DNA of 64,000 nucleotides. It comes from OCS116 cluster bacterium AG-430-B22. GTDB taxonomy: Bacteria > Pseudomonadota > Alphaproteobacteria > MED-G09. A program made the translations under genes and the position numbers. The notes under the pieces are model-generated. The model made no database searches, had not been told where the DNA came from, and saw only the letters and a program-made list of their open reading frames with translations. Below, piece after piece: positions 10,699 through 20,534 of this stretch. Each line of letters begins with the position of its first letter. Positions within the stretch are counted from its first letter, which is position 1. The stretch is taken from positions 2,208-66,207 of the forward strand of contig QCOD01000007.1 of assembly GCA_003209955.1 (NCBI GenBank), written 5' to 3'.

Positions 10699-11445
10699 AT
10701 GAGCGGAACAATAACTCTTTTAATTATTCTTCTTGCTACTCTAAGTACAGCATTTTTGTCGTCAATTTTTGGAATGTTAGGCGGCCTCATTTTAATGGGT
10801 GCATTGATTACTATAATGCCTGTAAGTCAGGCAATGGTCTTACATGGATTAATTCAATTAACATCAAATGGTTATCGAGCATGGCTTAATAAAACAGATA
10901 TTAAATGGAATATTGTTTCTACATTAATTATTGGTAATATTATCTCACTAGTTGGTTTATTCTCATTAGCTTTTGTACCTGATAAAATAACTGTACTTTT
11001 AGTACTAGGTTTATTGCCATACATAGCTTGGGCGCTTCCTAAAAATAACTCCTTAGATGTAAGCAAAAAACCAATTGGTATTTTAGCTGGCATGGTGGTG
11101 GTGGGCAGTAATCTTCTATCTGGTACAGGAGGCCCTTTATTAGATATTTTTTTCCAGCGAGTAAATATGACTCGCTATCAGGTTGTTGCAACCAAAGCTT
11201 TAGCTCAAAGTTTAGGCCATATATCTAAGATAATATTTTTTGGTTTTCTTACAACATCTAAATTTAATACTTGGCCAAGTTTTTGGCTAATTTTTTTTGC
11301 TGTGATAGCTTCTGGTATCGGAACTACTTTAGGAAAAATAATATTAGATAAAATTGACGATAGAACCTTCTTTGTATGGACACAAAGCATCTTACTAACT
11401 ATTGGTGCTGTGTTTATAGCCTATGCACTCTATCTAATGAAATGA
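10699..11445 (+). CDS. TauE/SafE (TSUP) family sulfite/organosulfonate exporter-like membrane protein
   Basis: 248 aa, about 8 TM helices, with internally duplicated glycine-rich helices (GMLGGLILMGAL, GTGGPLLDIFF) typical of DUF81/TSUP. Confidence 0.75.
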   Translation: MSGTITLLIILLATLSTAFLSSIFGMLGGLILMGALITIMPVSQAMVLHGLIQLTSNGYRAWLNKTDIKWNIVSTLIIGNIISLVGLFSLAFVPDKITVLLVLGLLPYIAWALPKNNSLDVSKKPIGILAGMVVVGSNLLSGTGGPLLDIFFQRVNMTRYQVVATKALAQSLGHISKIIFFGFLTTSKFNTWPSFWLIFFAVIASGIGTTLGKIILDKIDDRTFFVWTQSILLTIGAVFIAYALYLMK

Positions 11446-11490: not shown

Positions 11491-12168
11491 TCACTGATCA
11501 CCATCACACATCACATCAAGCAAAACACCGTTAGGTGTACCAGCTGTTGCATACATCCATACATTATCGCTTTTCTCAGATAACTCTACTTCCTCGCCAT
11601 CACCCATGAGACCTGAATAACCAAAGATACGAACTGGTCTGGCTCTAACTTTTTCGCAGTCTATTTCAAAATACATGCTTAGAGATCTGAAATCTGTTCC
11701 TTGTGTTGAGGTATCTTGCATCGTAATGACATATTTATTGTCATTACGCTCAAAGTAACTTTTGGTATCGACATAATATTTGATGCCAACATCCGTCTCT
11801 GCATAGAGCTCCCAATTTGGTGTATAGATATCTGTTTTAATCTTTAAATTATATTCTTCACTTACACTTTCAATACCACCAATATTTGTTGTATTTGTAT
11901 AGCCAAGTTCATCTAAGATTACTTTTGCTCTACCTGATCGATTACCGCTTCTACAATACAATAAAATTTCTTCATCTTTTAAAATTGCATAATTTTCGAT
12001 ATCTTTTTTAATCTCGGATAAGGGAATATGAATAGCACCTTCTATATAACCGGCTCTCCATTCTTCATCAGTTCTAACATCTATCATTACAGAATAAGCA
12101 TTCCCACTCATCACAACTGCTAAGACTAATGCTATAAGTATTTTATTTTTTATCTTGGCGCGTTTCAT
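11491..12168 (-). CDS. Secreted rhodanese-domain sulfurtransferase fused to a C-terminal domain of ~110 aa with unknown function
   Basis: Signal peptide. Rhodanese core IDVRTDEEWRAGYIEGAIHIP with active-site loop CRSGNRSG. The C-terminal half (YYVDTKSY...EIDCEK...MCDGDQ) resembles surface-adhesin-E-like domains by pattern only. Confidence 0.8.
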   Translation of the reverse strand: MKRAKIKNKILIALVLAVVMSGNAYSVMIDVRTDEEWRAGYIEGAIHIPLSEIKKDIENYAILKDEEILLYCRSGNRSGRAKVILDELGYTNTTNIGGIESVSEEYNLKIKTDIYTPNWELYAETDVGIKYYVDTKSYFERNDNKYVITMQDTSTQGTDFRSLSMYFEIDCEKVRARPVRIFGYSGLMGDGEEVELSEKSDNVWMYATAGTPNGVLLDVMCDGDQ

Positions 12169-12271: not shown

Positions 12272-12437
12272 TTTATATAACCCCGTGTTTTTCTTCTATA
12301 TATTTTAATGCTTCATCTGACATTTAATTAACCCTAACTTTTTGAACTATAACATAAATAAATAAACCTGTGACAATGTTGTTTTAATAACTTACGCTGG
12401 AAGTTAAAAGTTTAATATTTTCAACATGGAGGTGTTT

Positions 12438-13430
12438 ATGAAGAAAATTTTATTAAGTTTTGTAATATCCTTAATGATTGTCGATATTTCTATTGCTAAT
12501 CTTACTGAAAGAGAAAAATTTGATAGTTTATCAAAGGAAATATCTAATTGGGGTAGATGGGGAGAGAATGACCAACTTGGAACATTAAACAATATTTCTG
12601 ATATAAGTATAATTAAAGCAAGAAAATTAGTTATTGAAGGAAAAACAATTTCTTTATCAAGAAATATGTCAAAAGATTCAAATCCTTTTAATCATGCACC
12701 AATTAAACATGAGCCTTTTATTTTTCCTAAGGATGCTTTTGGAGCTGATCCTGCTCTCGCTCAGGAAGGGGCTGGTGATATTTTTGAAATAGAATATCAT
12801 GGATATTCTCATACACATCTAGACGCAGTAAATCATTTTGGAAGAGATGGCAAAATGTATAATGGTTATCCTTTTGAAATAAACTCTAACAATGAATTTG
12901 AAAATCTAGGAGTTGATGAAATAGGAAAATCAGGAATAGTTGGAAGAGGTATTTTAATTGATTTACCTATTTTTTTTGGAGTTGATTATGTTGAGGCTGG
13001 AACTGCAATTACAATTGAGGATATTAAAAAATGGGAAGAAAAAAATAATATAAAAATTGGTAAAGGAGATATTTTGCTTCTTAGGACAGGCAGATGGGAA
13101 CAGTTGCGTCAAAAAGGATATTGGGAGATTACAAAAAAAATTACAGGATTTCATTATTCTGTTGCTTCTTTTTTAAAGGAAAGAGATGTAGCTGTAATTG
13201 GTTGCGATGGTGTATCAGATGTTTACCCTTCAGGCATTGAAAGTAAAAAAGATGCTTTGCATGAGCTAGTTTTGGTAGATTTAGGTATGCCTATTTTTGA
13301 TAATATGGATCTTGATGAATTATCTACTCATTTAGACGAGCTAGGTAGAAAAACCTTCATGTTTGTTGCAAATCCTTTGAAAATAAAAGGAGCTACAGGT
13401 GCTCCAATTAATCCAGTAGCAATATATTAA
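12438..13430 (+). CDS. Putative cyclase family protein (kynurenine-formamidase-like fold), secreted
   Basis: NWGRWGENDQLGTLN, the HxxxH region (HGYSHTHLDAVNHF) and a GCDG motif. GGAGG RBS 5 nt before the ATG at 12438. Signal peptide. Paralog at 30715. Confidence 0.8.
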   Translation: MKKILLSFVISLMIVDISIANLTEREKFDSLSKEISNWGRWGENDQLGTLNNISDISIIKARKLVIEGKTISLSRNMSKDSNPFNHAPIKHEPFIFPKDAFGADPALAQEGAGDIFEIEYHGYSHTHLDAVNHFGRDGKMYNGYPFEINSNNEFENLGVDEIGKSGIVGRGILIDLPIFFGVDYVEAGTAITIEDIKKWEEKNNIKIGKGDILLLRTGRWEQLRQKGYWEITKKITGFHYSVASFLKERDVAVIGCDGVSDVYPSGIESKKDALHELVLVDLGMPIFDNMDLDELSTHLDELGRKTFMFVANPLKIKGATGAPINPVAIY

Positions 13431-13456: not shown

Positions 13457-13900
13457 ATGAGGAAATTTTTATTAATTTTAGTTATCACCATAATGATGAC
13501 AGAAAGTATCTATGCATGCAAAACACCTGAAGAACTAATGGATAATTATTTTAATGATTTTAGTTCAGGTGATATAAAAAAAGTTGAAAGAAATTATTCT
13601 TTTCCATTATTCGTTATTCAAAATGGCAATAAAACCATTCACGATGAAATCTCAACTTTTTTAGATTTTAAAGAAATTAAAAAAACTGGATGGAAAGAGT
13701 CGGTTATTAATTCAGTAATGATTATTATAAAAAAAGATAAATCAGCTGTTACACAAGTGAATTTTTCAAGAGTTAATAACAGAGGTAATGTATATTTAAC
13801 AACAGATGCAAATTATATTCTTATAAAAGAAGATGAAGATTGGTACATCTCAGGAGTAATTATTGATAGCGATGTTCCGCTTGGTATAGAAAATAATTAA
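13457..13900 (+). CDS. Secreted hypothetical protein, possibly NTF2-like fold
   Basis: Signal peptide MRKFLLILVITIMM. About 125-aa mature domain with an alpha+beta cone-like pattern (NYFNDFSSGD... WYISGVI). Function unsupported. Confidence 0.55.
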   Translation: MRKFLLILVITIMMTESIYACKTPEELMDNYFNDFSSGDIKKVERNYSFPLFVIQNGNKTIHDEISTFLDFKEIKKTGWKESVINSVMIIIKKDKSAVTQVNFSRVNNRGNVYLTTDANYILIKEDEDWYISGVIIDSDVPLGIENN

Positions 13901-14315: not shown

Positions 14316-14666
14316 ATGAAAGGCGCTAAGGAAGTTATTAAAACATTCTGGAAAATCCAAGATGAAGGTGATTATACAAAGGTAGTAAAACTATTCGCAG
14401 AAGATGCTGTTTTACTTGATCCTTTTTTTGGGATATTTGAGGGTAAAGAAGCAATTGGTAAATTTATGAAAAAGATGAACAAAGAAATGACCTCAAGGGA
14501 AACAAGTTTTGTTGTACGTGAAATAGATGGAGGAGGGGATGTTGCTTGGGCACAATGGACTGCCAAAACTCCAAATGGTGATATAGAGGGTTGTGGTTTG
14601 TATAAAGTGAAGAATGGATTGATGACTTATTATAAGGATTATATGAATGCACCTAAGGAGAATTAA
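14316..14666 (+). CDS. SnoaL-like / NTF2 family protein
   Basis: 116 aa. FWKIQDEGDY..LFAEDAVLLDPFFGIFEGKEAIGKF is a typical SnoaL N-terminal pattern. AGGAG RBS. Confidence 0.75.
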   Translation: MKGAKEVIKTFWKIQDEGDYTKVVKLFAEDAVLLDPFFGIFEGKEAIGKFMKKMNKEMTSRETSFVVREIDGGGDVAWAQWTAKTPNGDIEGCGLYKVKNGLMTYYKDYMNAPKEN

Positions 14667-14974: not shown

Positions 14975-15080
14975 AACAAAATAATATAGCTAACTTTAAG
15001 AATACATTAAAATTTCAATCACTATCGGACTTACCTCCTAAAATAAATGTCAGTCAAAAGTGCTTTTACTGGAAAATTCT

Positions 15081-15419
15081 ATGAATCAATTATCAGATAT
15101 AGCTGAAGCTATCCGTAATTATAAATTAAATGCAGAAGGAGGCTATGAAGAATGGGCAAAAGTTCCATGTTCTGAAGATTATAGAATGTATGTTCCTTCA
15201 ATGGGTTTTGATGTTACTGGAGCTGATGAAGTAAAGGAAGTGATCTTTGGTTGGTTAACCGACATTGAAGCAAGGCAAGAATTAGTAAATATCATTGAAT
15301 TTGAAAACACAGTTACGACATTTCTTCATATTTCAAATAAAAATGGAGAAATATTAAATATTGTTGAAGTCTTTAAAATTGATGATGAAGGAAGGGTATT
15401 TGAAATTTGGGCGCTTTAA
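15081..15419 (+). CDS. NTF2/SnoaL-like family protein
   Basis: 112 aa from the ATG at 15081. C-terminal IVEVFKIDDEGRVFEIWAL is typical of the fold. Stop shared with the convergent gene (TTAA). Confidence 0.55.
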   Translation: MNQLSDIAEAIRNYKLNAEGGYEEWAKVPCSEDYRMYVPSMGFDVTGADEVKEVIFGWLTDIEARQELVNIIEFENTVTTFLHISNKNGEILNIVEVFKIDDEGRVFEIWAL

Positions 15420-15763
15420 TTATTCTTCCGTTTTAAATGCATTTTAAATAAATAATATGCAATTGGCTCATAAAATATATTCATTATAAATATACAAAAT
15501 CTGTTTTCTAAGAAAAAAGCTAACCATTTAAAACCTTGAGTATTTTTCCAAATTAAAATAAAAGCTGCTGCACCTACATATTCAATTCCATTTTGATAAG
15601 CGTACATTCTTCTATTGTATTTATCCTCTAGTAGTGAGGAGTCATTGTATTTAATTCCCTCAGATCTTGATTTGTAGATTTCTATCTCTCTTTTGCATAC
15701 AGGACAGGTATCATTATAATAAACATCAATTGCATTTTTTTCTCTAACCTTGTTTGTTTTCAT
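15416..15763 (-). CDS. DCC-family thiol-disulfide oxidoreductase (DUF393)
   Basis: N-terminal VYYNDTCPVCKREI (CxxC), 115 aa, hydrophobic C-terminal half as in the DCC1/DUF393 family. Confidence 0.7.
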   Translation of the reverse strand: MKTNKVREKNAIDVYYNDTCPVCKREIEIYKSRSEGIKYNDSSLLEDKYNRRMYAYQNGIEYVGAAAFILIWKNTQGFKWLAFFLENRFCIFIMNIFYEPIAYYLFKMHLKRKNN

Positions 15764-15869
15764 CTTTGTCTTCTTGTAATAAAACTTTTTTCAATAGTTT
15801 GTATTCTTCGCTATCTTCACCTAATGTTTTCTTGAAATACTCTAATGCTCTTTCTGTTTTATCAGTCAT
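15744..15869 (-). CDS. 41-aa hydrophilic micro-ORF (MTDKTERALEYFKKTLGEDSEEYKLLKKVLLQEDKDENKQG) overlapping the DCC gene start
   Basis: Hand-translated. 20-nt overlap with the downstream gene. No clear RBS. Confidence 0.25.
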   Translation of the reverse strand: MTDKTERALEYFKKTLGEDSEEYKLLKKVLLQEDKDENKQG

Positions 15870-15940
15870 TAAGTTAATATTTATAATGTTTAGAATATTT
15901 AAATCTAGTAATTATTGACAAAATTAGCTAATAGATTGTT

Positions 15941-16027
15941 ATGAAAAACTTTTATAGAAATCCTTGTGATTGCTGTACTGCAGATTGCAGTTGTAATTGC
16001 AGTTGTTGTAATTGCAGTTGTTGTTAG
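15941..16027 (+). CDS. 28-aa cysteine-rich peptide MKNFYRNPCDCCTADCSCNCSCCNCSCC (13 Cys); candidate metallothionein-like peptide or RiPP precursor
   Basis: Hand-translated. In-frame TAG 9 nt upstream. Contains an in-frame 15-nt tandem repeat. No SD and no clear promoter. Confidence 0.4.
   Translation: MKNFYRNPCDCCTADCSCNCSCCNCSCC
15983..16024 (+). repeat. Tandem repeat AATTGCAGTTGTTGT x2 preceded by the partial copy GATTGCAGTTGT
   Basis: Read directly. The 15-nt period equals 5 codons (NCSCC). Confidence 0.9.
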
Positions 16028-16033
16028 CTTTAA

Positions 16034-16056
16034 TTTATAAATAATAAATTTATAAA
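16034..16056. terminator. AT-only palindromic pair TTTATAAA-taataaa-TTTATAAA between convergent micro-ORFs
   Basis: The self-complementary octamer occurs twice, allowing an 8-bp A/T stem with a 7-nt loop. Weak energetically, so terminator function is speculative. Confidence 0.2.
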
Positions 16057-16059
16057 CTT

Positions 16060-16173
16060 TCATTTACTGCTTTTTTTTCCAAATAATTTTAATACTATCA
16101 TAGTTATGATTAATATTATTGGAACTGCGCCAAGTTTCAAAATATGAATTATGCCTTCAAATAAGTTTTCCAT
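16060..16173 (-). CDS. 37-aa single-TM micro-ORF (MENLFEGIIHILKLGAVPIILIITMIVLKLFGKKSSK)
   Basis: Hand-translated. One TM helix followed by a basic tail. Weak RBS. Confidence 0.3.
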   Translation of the reverse strand: MENLFEGIIHILKLGAVPIILIITMIVLKLFGKKSSK

Positions 16174-18664: not shown

Positions 18665-18736
18665 ATGAAGAGATTGATAATATTTTTAATACTCTTATTA
18701 TTAATATTCTCAATTATTTTTAAGAGGGTATTTTAA
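18665..18736 (+). CDS. 23-aa hydrophobic micro-ORF (MKRLIIFLILLLLIFSIIFKRVF)
   Basis: Hand-translated. TAATG stop/start overlap with the next gene. Could arise by chance. Confidence 0.2.
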   Translation: MKRLIIFLILLLLIFSIIFKRVF

Positions 18737-19227
18737 TGAAAAAGCTTTTTTTAACATTTTTTTTTGGATTTATAATGGCAGTAAATTTTAATGCACAAAC
18801 TCAAGACCTAGATACATATGATAGAATAAAAATTGTAGAAAATATGAATAAATATGCAATAGGTATAGATACTAAAAATTATGAGTTATTTAGATCAATT
18901 TTTTTAGATGATGTGGAAGTTACAGTTATTTATGACCCTAATTGGAAGGGCGGAGAAGAAGTAAAATTTAATGGAAAAGAAAGCTGGGTTAAGTATGTTG
19001 AAGAAGCCATAAGTCAATATAGAGCTACTCAGCACATGCTTGGTAACCCAATGATTACTTTTGATGGTGAAATTGCAATTGTAAGAACCGATTTACAAGC
19101 ATCCCATTATTATATTAAAGATCCAGAAGCCAAGACTACCTTATGGGGTTTTTATGAAACACATATGGTAAAAAAGGAAAATTGGAAAATAATTAAACAC
19201 ACTTTAACAAGCATAGGTTCAGAATAA
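18736..19227 (+). CDS. SnoaL_4-type NTF2-like protein, with signal peptide
   Basis: DRIKIVENMNKYAIGIDTKNYELFRSIFLDDVEV and ATQHMLGNP are typical of the SnoaL_4 subgroup. Confidence 0.75.
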   Translation: MKKLFLTFFFGFIMAVNFNAQTQDLDTYDRIKIVENMNKYAIGIDTKNYELFRSIFLDDVEVTVIYDPNWKGGEEVKFNGKESWVKYVEEAISQYRATQHMLGNPMITFDGEIAIVRTDLQASHYYIKDPEAKTTLWGFYETHMVKKENWKIIKHTLTSIGSE

Positions 19228-20000: not shown

Positions 20001-20534
20001 ATGGAGAAAAATGAAATTATGACAGATGAAAATCAACTATCTTCAGAAGAAATTAAAAAACTAAGAAACCTTATTGATACAGAAGAAATTAAAAAACTAA
20101 GGCTTAAATATTCATATCATATGGATGCAAGGGAGCTAGATGAACTAATGAATGTTTTTGCAGATGGTGCAGTGTGTGGATATGGTCCATATGGTGATTG
20201 GGAAGGCAAGGAGACTATATACAACAACTATAAGGAAACCTTTAAAGACACAATTGATACACCTTTTGTGAGCATGCATGTTAATACAAATCATTTAGTT
20301 GAAATCACTGGTCCAGATACAGCAAAAGGTAGAGTATATCTTTTGGACGTAATAACTAAAAATATGGATGGATCTGATATCGAAGAAGGTAAAAGTAATT
20401 TTTTATGGTTTGCTTTATATGATGAGGAATATGTCAAAATTAATGATGAATGGAAGGTTAAGAGAATGGATTTGCATTTCTTCTGGCCAGAAAGACATAT
20501 TGCTAAAGACTTTTCAACTAAGTTTTTATTATAA
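20001..20534 (+). CDS. SnoaL_4-type NTF2-like protein with a duplicated N-terminal heptad segment
   Basis: IKKLRLKYSYHMDARELDELMNVFADGAV and WKVKRMDLHF. The start is ambiguous (ATG at 20001 or 20019). Confidence 0.7.
   Translation: MEKNEIMTDENQLSSEEIKKLRNLIDTEEIKKLRLKYSYHMDARELDELMNVFADGAVCGYGPYGDWEGKETIYNNYKETFKDTIDTPFVSMHVNTNHLVEITGPDTAKGRVYLLDVITKNMDGSDIEEGKSNFLWFALYDEEYVKINDEWKVKRMDLHFFWPERHIAKDFSTKFLL
20044..20101 (+). repeat. 22-nt perfect direct repeat CAGAAGAAATTAAAAAACTAAG at a 36-nt (12-codon) spacing
   Basis: Read directly. Gives the EEIKKLR...EEIKKLR duplication in the encoded protein. Confidence 0.85.

Follow-up and report, generated by a model that had tools for sequence, protein, structure and literature searches.

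Analysis of a 64,000-nucleotide stretch of contig QCOD01000007.1 of OCS116 cluster bacterium AG-430-B22 (the whole stretch, approximately 30% G+C, is referred to as the window) indicated that positions 15941-16027 are, very probably, a real coding micro-gene of marine alphaproteobacteria of the OCS116/PS1 clade. The product of this gene, named Cys28, is a cysteine-rich peptide which, judged from the substitutions that separate related lineages, is under purifying selection. Its composition suggests that Cys28 may be a cytoplasmic, minimal metallothionein-like metal-thiolate peptide, a reading to which we assign a probability of roughly 0.45.

The Cys28 open reading frame

The open reading frame (ORF) lies on the forward strand, from an ATG at 15941 to a TAG at 16025-16027, and its product is MKNFYRNPCDCCTADCSCNCSCCNCSCC. 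Cysteine accounts for 11 of the 28 residues (39%); all cysteines are located between residues 9 and 28, in the pattern CxCC / CxCxCxCC / CxCC. The original prediction, made from the letters of the window, had given the same 28-codon frame, with coordinates and translation that agree with ours, and had confined the cysteines to the last 20 residues in the same three groups. Its count of 13 cysteines was wrong: the motifs it listed sum to 11 (3+5+3).

No histidine is present in Cys28. The core is free of aromatic residues in most lineages: F4 and Y5 belong to a variable head, and Tyr or Phe takes the place of Cys in one lineage (P0013, see below). The spacers between the cysteines are small polar or acidic residues, and there is no signal peptide. 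Cys28 stands out from the rest of the window, where the other stop-free segments of the six frames have at most 6 cysteines per 25 residues.

The in-frame TAG that had been predicted to fix the start was found 9 nt upstream from the ATG, and in-frame stops shortly 5' of the ATG are present in most other lineages too. The accompanying claim that the complementary frame has no start codon did not hold, as an ATG-started ORF of 52 aa runs opposite Cys28 (16063..15905). This antisense frame is broken by stops in L048, L002 and L060 and hence is not conserved.

Orthologues of Cys28 in OCS116/PS1 lineages

In the genome collection, the window was closest to single-cell genomes of marine Alphaproteobacteria that bear the label OCS116 cluster or PS1 clade. 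Relatives of the locus were reached by three independent routes: synteny in genomes around the adjoining gene, which codes for a DCC1-like thiol-disulfide oxidoreductase (DCC); a degenerate-DNA scan of metagenomes; and a look-up of DCC homologues. Cys28 was found in nine lineages, the window and eight others, in which the adjoining DCC protein is 67-100% identical. The synteny next to the DCC gene that the original prediction had proposed to look for was thus seen in all eight further lineages, at the same place.

DCC synteny gave the species genome L002 (DCC 72% identical), with the Cys28 copy MINFYKKPCECCNSDCSCSCSCCNCSCC at the same place. The metagenome scan, performed with a degenerate DNA pattern for P-C-[DE]-C-C-x-x-D-C-x-C, yielded five true matches, all of them on contigs of 27-29% G+C: MDKFYKNPCDCCNKDCVCNCSCCSCSCC in L043, MKIFYKNPCDCCNSDCNCNCSCCNCSCC in L048, a peptide identical to that of the window in L056, MNETTKNPCDCCNSDCNCNCSCCNCSCC in L057 and MCNLIKNPCDCCNSDCNCSCSCCSCTCC in L060. 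The DCC-homologue route, which is blind to the peptide, retrieved the encoding contigs and yielded L166-170, L171 and L172-176. The peptides obtained in this way were MKVIIKNPCDCCNANCNCSCNCCTCNCC in the P0005 lineage (DCC 74%), the same peptide as in L060 in the P0006 lineage (DCC 71%) and MINSYEKPCECCNSD[F/C]SCS[C/Y][S/N]CCNCSCY in the P0013 lineage (DCC 67%).

All lineages having a copy at the locus showed a Cys28 of exactly 28 codons, ATG to TAG. Its position was also constant: in every copy about 72 nt separate Cys28 from the start of p39/p41, a small gene transcribed divergently. The conserved core of the peptide is P-C-[DE]-C-C-N-x-[DN]-C-x-C-x-C-x-C-C-x-C-x-C-C, and the head of 7 residues is its most variable part.

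Contigs of 1.44-1.47 Mb carrying a related DCC gene were observed in the course of the look-up (L155-L157; ENA ERZ285480xx), which suggests near-complete, very small genomes for the clade.

Substitution pattern and coding capacity

The metagenome pattern fixes positions 1 and 2 of eight codons (8-12, 15, 16 and 18), and four of the nine lineages were found with it, which weighs against our interpretation. For this reason the statistics were taken from the unconstrained part of the gene and from the synteny-derived lineages. Among the five synteny-only lineages, the variable sites by codon position numbered 7/13/21 when all codons were included and 2/8/16 for codons 8-28. For codons 19-28, which the pattern does not constrain, the numbers in six lineages were 0/3/8.

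The comparison of the window with L002 gave 9.5 synonymous differences over 11 sites versus 7.5 nonsynonymous differences over 73 sites (Fisher p=3e-6), and the cores of L048 and L057 differ by 10 synonymous and 0 nonsynonymous substitutions. Between lineages, synonymous divergence (dS) is saturated, with a nonsynonymous divergence (dN) of 0.06-0.2; TGT and TGC alternate in 7 of the 11 cysteine columns. The original prediction had named, as outcomes that would refute it, indels in relatives that are not multiples of three, stop codons and the behaviour of a non-coding microsatellite. When these were looked for, frame, length, start and TAG were found to be kept, and the substitutions to be mainly synonymous, which favours a real coding gene. 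From these patterns we infer that Cys28 is translated in vivo.

The alternative that no gene exists at this position was also considered: the segment could be a non-coding 15-nt minisatellite or an antisense RNA element, or the 52-aa antisense ORF could be the true gene. This idea draws on the 15-nt units (described below), which are perfect in the window and vary in copy number in the population, on the ATG of the antisense ORF and on a G-U-rich hairpin flagged as terminator-like. It is largely refuted by the comparative data and we regard it as scarcely credible. The substitutions are biased to third positions, with dS saturated at low dN; the third positions of the forward frame are the first positions of the antisense frame, so that this pattern is incompatible with antisense coding, and the antisense frame is interrupted by stop codons in three lineages. 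The start, the stop and the number of codons are all preserved, and in other lineages the repeat has diverged in DNA while the peptide was kept. The RNA fold of the region was not significant (z=-1.5), and Rfam, searched with gathering thresholds and at E<=10, returned no family, the sole match being a sub-threshold microRNA model over the repeat.

The 15-nt tandem repeat and its alleles

Two identical 15-nt units, each encoding NCSCC, occupy the 3' part of the gene and are preceded by an 11-nt partial copy at 15984-15994. Tandem Repeats Finder (TRF) called 15990-16024 with a period of 15, 2.3 copies and 100% identity, which bears out the in-frame repeat that the original prediction had described in the 3' half. 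In the window the two units match at 15/15 nt; the pairs of other lineages show 2-3 mismatches in 15 nt, most of them synonymous. As the units elsewhere have diverged in DNA and are kept in the peptide, the two-unit design is ancient and did not arise through recent expansion of a microsatellite.

Contigs of the same species as the window were picked by an identical DCC or p41 protein. Most of them carry the 28-aa allele, and four contain synonymous-only variants. An in-frame allele lacking one 15-nt unit, MKNFYRNPCDCCTADCSCNCSCC (23 aa, 8 Cys), was found in two independent samples (L031/L069 and L066). No out-of-frame variant of Cys28 was seen among the same-species contigs. It had been predicted that gain or loss of the repeat would keep the frame, and the only repeat-number variant found, minus one NCSCC, does so. 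A phase-variable, simple-sequence contingency locus was rejected: the unit is 15 nt long and the sole variant drops 5 codons in frame, which provides no on/off switch.

A second length polymorphism occurs within the species, downstream from the gene. The direct repeat AATTTATAAA(TAATA)AATTTATAAA at 16032-16056 shows presence or absence of 15 nt; contigs of the absent type are L027/L065, L061, L064, L067 and L068, and this spacer indel is independent of the coding 15-nt indel.

Database and pattern searches

Cys28 measures 87 nt including the stop codon. The usual floor of gene callers is 90 nt, so the gene is invisible in protein databases. Searches of those databases were empty: phmmer with the 30-aa stop-to-stop translation against 1.84 billion cluster representatives gave 0 matches at E<=0.001, and a 5.8-billion word index, probed with a peptide artificially extended with extra NCSCC units, gave no candidate. 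Nothing relevant was found in the literature on the peptide motifs, on the function of DUF393/DCC or on the OCS116/PS1 clade.

A peptide-alignment search of viral contigs produced 600 pattern matches, none of which was confirmed. The 82 viral and giant-virus contigs matching CxCxCxCCxCxCC-stop (L071-L152) are (TGY)n microsatellites or the reverse strands of poly-Q/T coding sequences and are unrelated to Cys28.

The core DNA pattern also matched predicted lipoproteins of about 460-540 aa (N-terminus ...IIAISxIIAIGLVAC) in one metagenome, Ga0099364, each with one or two P-C-[DE]-C-C-x-x-D-C-x-C motifs. These loci (L034, L036, L037, L039, L045, L050, L052, L054 and L058) are unrelated to Cys28. 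A (PCDCC)n repeat was matched in L042 (71% G+C).

Cys28 as a possible metallothionein-like peptide

The metallothionein-like reading is based on the 39% cysteine, the CxC and CC motifs, the small polar or acidic spacers, the lack of histidine and the size of about 3 kDa. High cysteine content in CxC and CC motifs, kept in eight further lineages, agrees with the operational definition of a metallothionein, and 28 aa lie under its <10 kDa limit. Adjacent CC and CxC pairs are poor for stable intramolecular disulfides and typical of metal-thiolate ligands.

If Cys28 works in this manner, its 11 thiolates would enclose a small metal-thiolate cluster (by analogy, of about 6-8 Cu(I) or of the M(II)4Cys11 type with Zn or Cd), and trace metals would be buffered or detoxified by the peptide. 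Metal capacity would be set by the NCSCC modules at the C-terminus, and slippage of the 15-nt unit could generate the 23-aa (8 Cys) and 28-aa (11 Cys) alleles with the frame intact. The divergent control region of fixed length may provide for co-expression with p41 and the DCC1-like oxidoreductase, an enzyme that might keep the thiols reduced or gate the release of metal through oxidation.

Small fungal Cu(I) metallothioneins are among the closest known systems. They have 25-30 residues (the CuMT of Neurospora crassa has 26 aa with 7 Cys), are dominated by CxC with S, N or G spacers, contain no histidine and are cytoplasmic without a signal peptide. Cys28 differs in being bacterial, in having 11 instead of 7 cysteines and three CC doublets, in showing no detectable sequence relationship and in that its metal binding is putative. 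The alpha-domain of vertebrate metallothioneins, which holds 11 Cys in about 31 residues around an M(II)4Cys11 cluster and is part of a two-domain protein of 61 aa, shares with Cys28 the 11 cysteines within some 20-30 residues and the combination of CC and CxC with a CSCC-type motif at the end. There is no homology between them, Cys28 is not part of a two-domain protein, and the stoichiometry given above for Cys28 is an analogy only.

Among bacterial proteins, the mycobacterial copper metallothionein MymT, encoded by a small non-annotated ORF, has 4.9 kDa (about 53 aa), is induced by copper and binds Cu(I) (PMC7558416). Like Cys28 it is the Cys-rich, cytoplasmic, lineage-restricted product of a small bacterial ORF missed by annotation; MymT is actinobacterial with shown copper induction and binding, whereas Cys28, at about 3 kDa, is alphaproteobacterial, known from sequence and without a match to it. 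The SmtA/BmtA proteins (PF02069) have about 55 aa with His and Cys ligands in a zinc-finger-like fold and also occur in marine picoplankton (cyanobacteria) (PMC10612145). They too are bacterial and Cys-rich, and they buffer metals, as is proposed for Cys28. As had been predicted, Cys28 does not resemble this type: it is half the size, lacks histidine and matches neither PF02069 nor any other Pfam model at E<=10.

The tandem modules have a counterpart in mollusc and tunicate metallothioneins, which are described as evolving through gain and loss of modules that are domains of 30-40 aa (PMC7826182, PMC8476144). On that description, in-frame duplication or loss of Cys-rich modules changes the number of ligand cysteines in both cases; the module of Cys28, NCSCC, is 5 residues long, and its number differs among members of one bacterial population.

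Several results weigh against this interpretation, besides the bias of the metagenome pattern. No family was matched by Cys28 in Pfam or NCBIfam at E<=10, and therefore no metallothionein model, nor was any PDB chain at E<=10, solved metallothioneins included. On sequence grounds Cys28 is outside every metallothionein family, SmtA/BmtA and MymT among them, and it cannot be filed in any. No gene for a metal sensor, efflux pump or metal chaperone occurs within about 8 kb of Cys28, and no recognisable operator of a metal regulator was identified in the shared promoter region. The original prediction of a metallothionein-like peptide thus stands as regards composition (39% Cys, CxC and CC, no His), and found no backing in metallothionein models, sequence matches or a linked metal gene.

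The distribution of the gene adds to these points. In the P0013 lineage (L172-L176) two cysteines are replaced by Tyr or Phe, and the affected positions (16, 20 and 28) vary among contigs with identical DCC; either not all 11 thiols are strictly required or the copy is decaying or relaxed. In the sub-lineage L001/L153/L165 (DCC 83-85%) Cys28 is gone from the locus: mem37, the gene that in the window converges on Cys28, lies just 12 nt from p39, as would follow from a deletion of about 175 bp comprising Cys28 and its upstream region. In the abundant lineage with the gene order SDR-DCC-FAA-hydrolase (L003/L004 and L154-L164) there is no Cys28 next to DCC and no p41. Cys28 is, then, dispensable in some lineages.

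Genomic context of Cys28

In the window, Cys28 sits between mem37 and p41, divergent from p41-DCC and convergent with mem37. The features of the locus are listed in Table 1.

Table 1. Features of the Cys28 locus, in window positions.
Feature	Position	Strand	Remarks
DCC1-like thiol-disulfide oxidoreductase	15416..15763	-	PF04134 E=2.5e-10; CxxC motif TCPVC; synteny
p41, acidic, highly charged protein of 41 aa	15744..15869	-	20 nt of its 3' end are shared with the DCC start
Divergent intergenic region shared with p41	15870..15940	.	71 nt; about 72 nt, constant in all lineages (alignments)
Conserved block AAAATTAGCTA, consensus AAAATCAGyTA	15920..15930	+	11-21 nt 5' of the ATG in all lineages; not Shine-Dalgarno-like
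In-frame TAG	15932..15934	+	9 nt 5' of the ATG; pins the ATG as start
Cys28 micro-gene	15941..16027	+	28 codons + TAG, encodes MKNFYRNPCDCCTADCSCNCSCCNCSCC, 11 Cys; 8 further lineages with 28-codon orthologues
Two identical 15-nt units AATTGCAGTTGTTGT, NCSCC each	15995..16024	+	TRF
3' spacer to the convergent gene	16028..16059	.	32 nt; direct repeat AATTTATAAA at 16032-16041 and 16047-16056
mem37, convergent hydrophobic micro-protein of 37 aa, MENLFEGIIHILKLGAVPIILIITMIVLKLFGKKSSK	16060..16173	-	Conserved, independent of Cys28

The identity of the neighbour as a thiol-disulfide oxidoreductase, part of the original prediction, was upheld by the PF04134 match. The p41 protein (39-51 aa) has no family match; it is present wherever this type of DCC synteny occurs and always accompanies Cys28. 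The mem37 protein, often not called as a gene, is 75-97% identical in most related lineages and resembles small membrane peptides or peptides of the type-I-toxin kind. L057 has a mere pseudogene of mem37 beside an intact Cys28, and L001 keeps mem37 with Cys28 deleted. These losses link Cys28 to p41-DCC and make it independent of mem37; they also rule out a type I toxin-antitoxin pair of mem37 and a convergent RNA, as the two genes were lost independently. Exact look-ups of mem37 and of p100, a same-strand gene downstream, found no record. After the loss of Cys28, mem37, p39 and DCC form a tight co-directional array (L001 3882-3895, L153 and L165).

A Pfam scan of the genes between 8.0 and 23.4 kb identified, upstream, QueA, Tgt, a TauE-like exporter, a rhodanese fusion and a cyclase; around the locus, NTF2/SnoaL-like proteins on both sides, a cold-shock protein and an alcohol dehydrogenase (ADH)-like reductase; and, downstream, a thioesterase, a TPR protein, DUF481, MscS and an ABM monooxygenase. 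No RiPP (ribosomally synthesized and post-translationally modified peptide) maturase, peptide exporter or metal-homeostasis gene was found in this interval. Small NTF2-like or SnoaL-like genes are dense in the region (13457-13900, 14316-14666, 18736-19227 and 20001-20534; DUF6841, SnoaL_2 and twice SnoaL_4). A DUF4904-like protein is encoded at 15060-15419 and the putative cyclase at 12426-13430. The gene resembling TauE/SafE-type sulfite exporters (10699-11445, forward strand) adjoins the fusion of rhodanese and Adhesin_E (11491-12168, reverse strand), 4-5 kb from Cys28.

Cys28 is constantly paired, in divergent orientation, with a thiol-disulfide oxidoreductase, which suggests, we infer, co-regulation and a redox link. 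The pairing could also mean that Cys28 is a metal-free thiol peptide, a polythiol cycling between reduced and disulfide states as substrate or partner of DCC, as oxidant scavenger, as persulfide carrier or as a reserve of cysteine or sulfur. The strict conservation of the p41-DCC pairing across the constant spacer of about 72 nt, the CxxC motif of DCC, the glutathione S-transferase gene that follows DCC in the P0013 lineage (L172-L176), the rhodanese and TauE-like genes and the lack of metal genes in the scanned interval all accord with such a function. We nevertheless judge it unlikely, given that the CC and CxC geometry is unfavourable for stable intramolecular disulfides, that DCC persists where Cys28 is deleted and that no Cys-rich small ORF (sORF) was found next to the distant DCC homologues of SAR116 and other lineages.

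A RiPP precursor carrying thioether, thioamide, oxazolone or similar modifications introduced by enzymes encoded elsewhere would likewise be small and Cys-rich, and its N-terminus would vary while its C-terminal core stayed conserved. The original prediction had found this reading poorly supported, as it saw no maturase nearby, and the scan agrees: neither the 8.0-23.4 kb interval nor the syntenic loci contain a radical-SAM, YcaO, LanB/C/M or DUF692/MNIO enzyme, a peptidase or an exporter for it. The "leader" would consist of just 7 residues that are not conserved, and the genomes are streamlined (about 1.45 Mb). A RiPP is thus a very unlikely identity for Cys28.

Expression signals

No Shine-Dalgarno motif (AGGA, GGAG or GAGG) precedes the ATG of Cys28. 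This is not disqualifying, because only 24 of the 57 long ORFs of the window have one, versus 9% of random 17-mers. In the P0005 lineage, GGGAG or GGGGC stands directly before the ATG. Promoter-like hexamers were found on the forward strand (TTATCA-17-TATAAT, 15859-15887) and on the reverse strand (TTGTCA-16-AATATT, 15921-15894), at a frequency no higher than in shuffled sequence; the caveat of the original prediction, that there is no Shine-Dalgarno sequence and no convincing promoter, therefore still applies. The conserved block AAAATCAGyTA does not recur elsewhere in the window, and so provides no evidence for a regulon operator.

Downstream, the alignments showed no conserved terminator hairpin after Cys28, and the spacer to the convergent gene, of 5-35 nt, is not conserved. 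The G-U-rich, terminator-like hairpin obtained in a consensus scan was rejected, since it is the coding repeat itself and promoter and terminator matches are no commoner than in shuffles.

These signals bear on a further possibility, namely that Cys28 is a cysteine-sensing regulatory sORF, on whose 11 cysteine codons ribosomes would pause when Cys-tRNA is scarce and so alter the expression of a gene in cis (the p100-p61 operon or overlapping transcripts). Such a mechanism is documented in mycobacteria, where polycysteine leaderless sORF attenuators stand at the head of operons for cysteine metabolism on the same strand, as their first cistron, and act via an RNA duplex (bioRxiv 10.1101/834739). 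Cys28 has in common with them that it is a short, unannotated ORF with very dense, partly consecutive cysteine codons (three CC doublets) and no Shine-Dalgarno motif, which, together with the A/T-rich conserved block near the ATG, is compatible with a very short leader. The replacement of Cys by Tyr or Phe tolerated in the P0013 lineage would fit as well, as would the arrangement in L057, where the first intact gene after Cys28 is p100, on the same strand and 177 nt away.

Cys28 differs from these attenuators in that its next gene, mem37, is convergent in 8/9 lineages, and in that its peptide is under purifying selection. The same-strand genes further downstream code for a secreted protein of 100 aa, a membrane protein of 61 aa and the ADH-like reductase, with no signature of cysteine metabolism, and downstream from the ORF the RNA shows neither significant nor conserved structure (z=-1.5). 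P8, the acidic residue 10, the small polar spacers, the length of 28 codons and the TAG are all conserved, and all are needless for a pure codon sensor; moreover, L001 keeps all neighbours after deletion of the sORF. We therefore consider a regulatory sORF to be quite unlikely.

Implications

A more far-reaching version of the metallothionein-like reading is that Cys28 may be the founding member of a new family of ultra-small bacterial metallothioneins and, at 28 aa with 11 cysteines, the smallest one known from bacteria, acting as a redox-gated metal buffer with p41 and the DCC1-like enzyme in marine bacteria that are streamlined and oligotrophic, and with a capacity tuned in populations by the number of NCSCC units. 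This extended proposal is rather doubtful. What distinguishes Cys28 is its extreme smallness, the in-frame module of 5 residues whose number differs within a natural population, the fixed partnership with p41 and the DCC1-like protein and the restriction to a streamlined marine clade.

Whatever its function, Cys28 is too short for the 30-codon floor of gene callers and yet strongly conserved, with zero relatives among 1.84 billion representatives, which indicates that whole families are invisible to protein databases. Should Cys28 prove to bind metals, streamlined marine heterotrophic bacterioplankton would have their first recognised metallothionein-type buffer, one far smaller than SmtA/BmtA or MymT. 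The DCC1-like oxidoreductases, which are poorly understood, would gain a first suggested physiological partner. The gene would also offer a handle on how these bacteria deal with the Cu, Zn and Cd of ocean surface waters, as the 23-aa and 28-aa alleles and the presence or absence of Cys28 could be mapped to trace-metal data.

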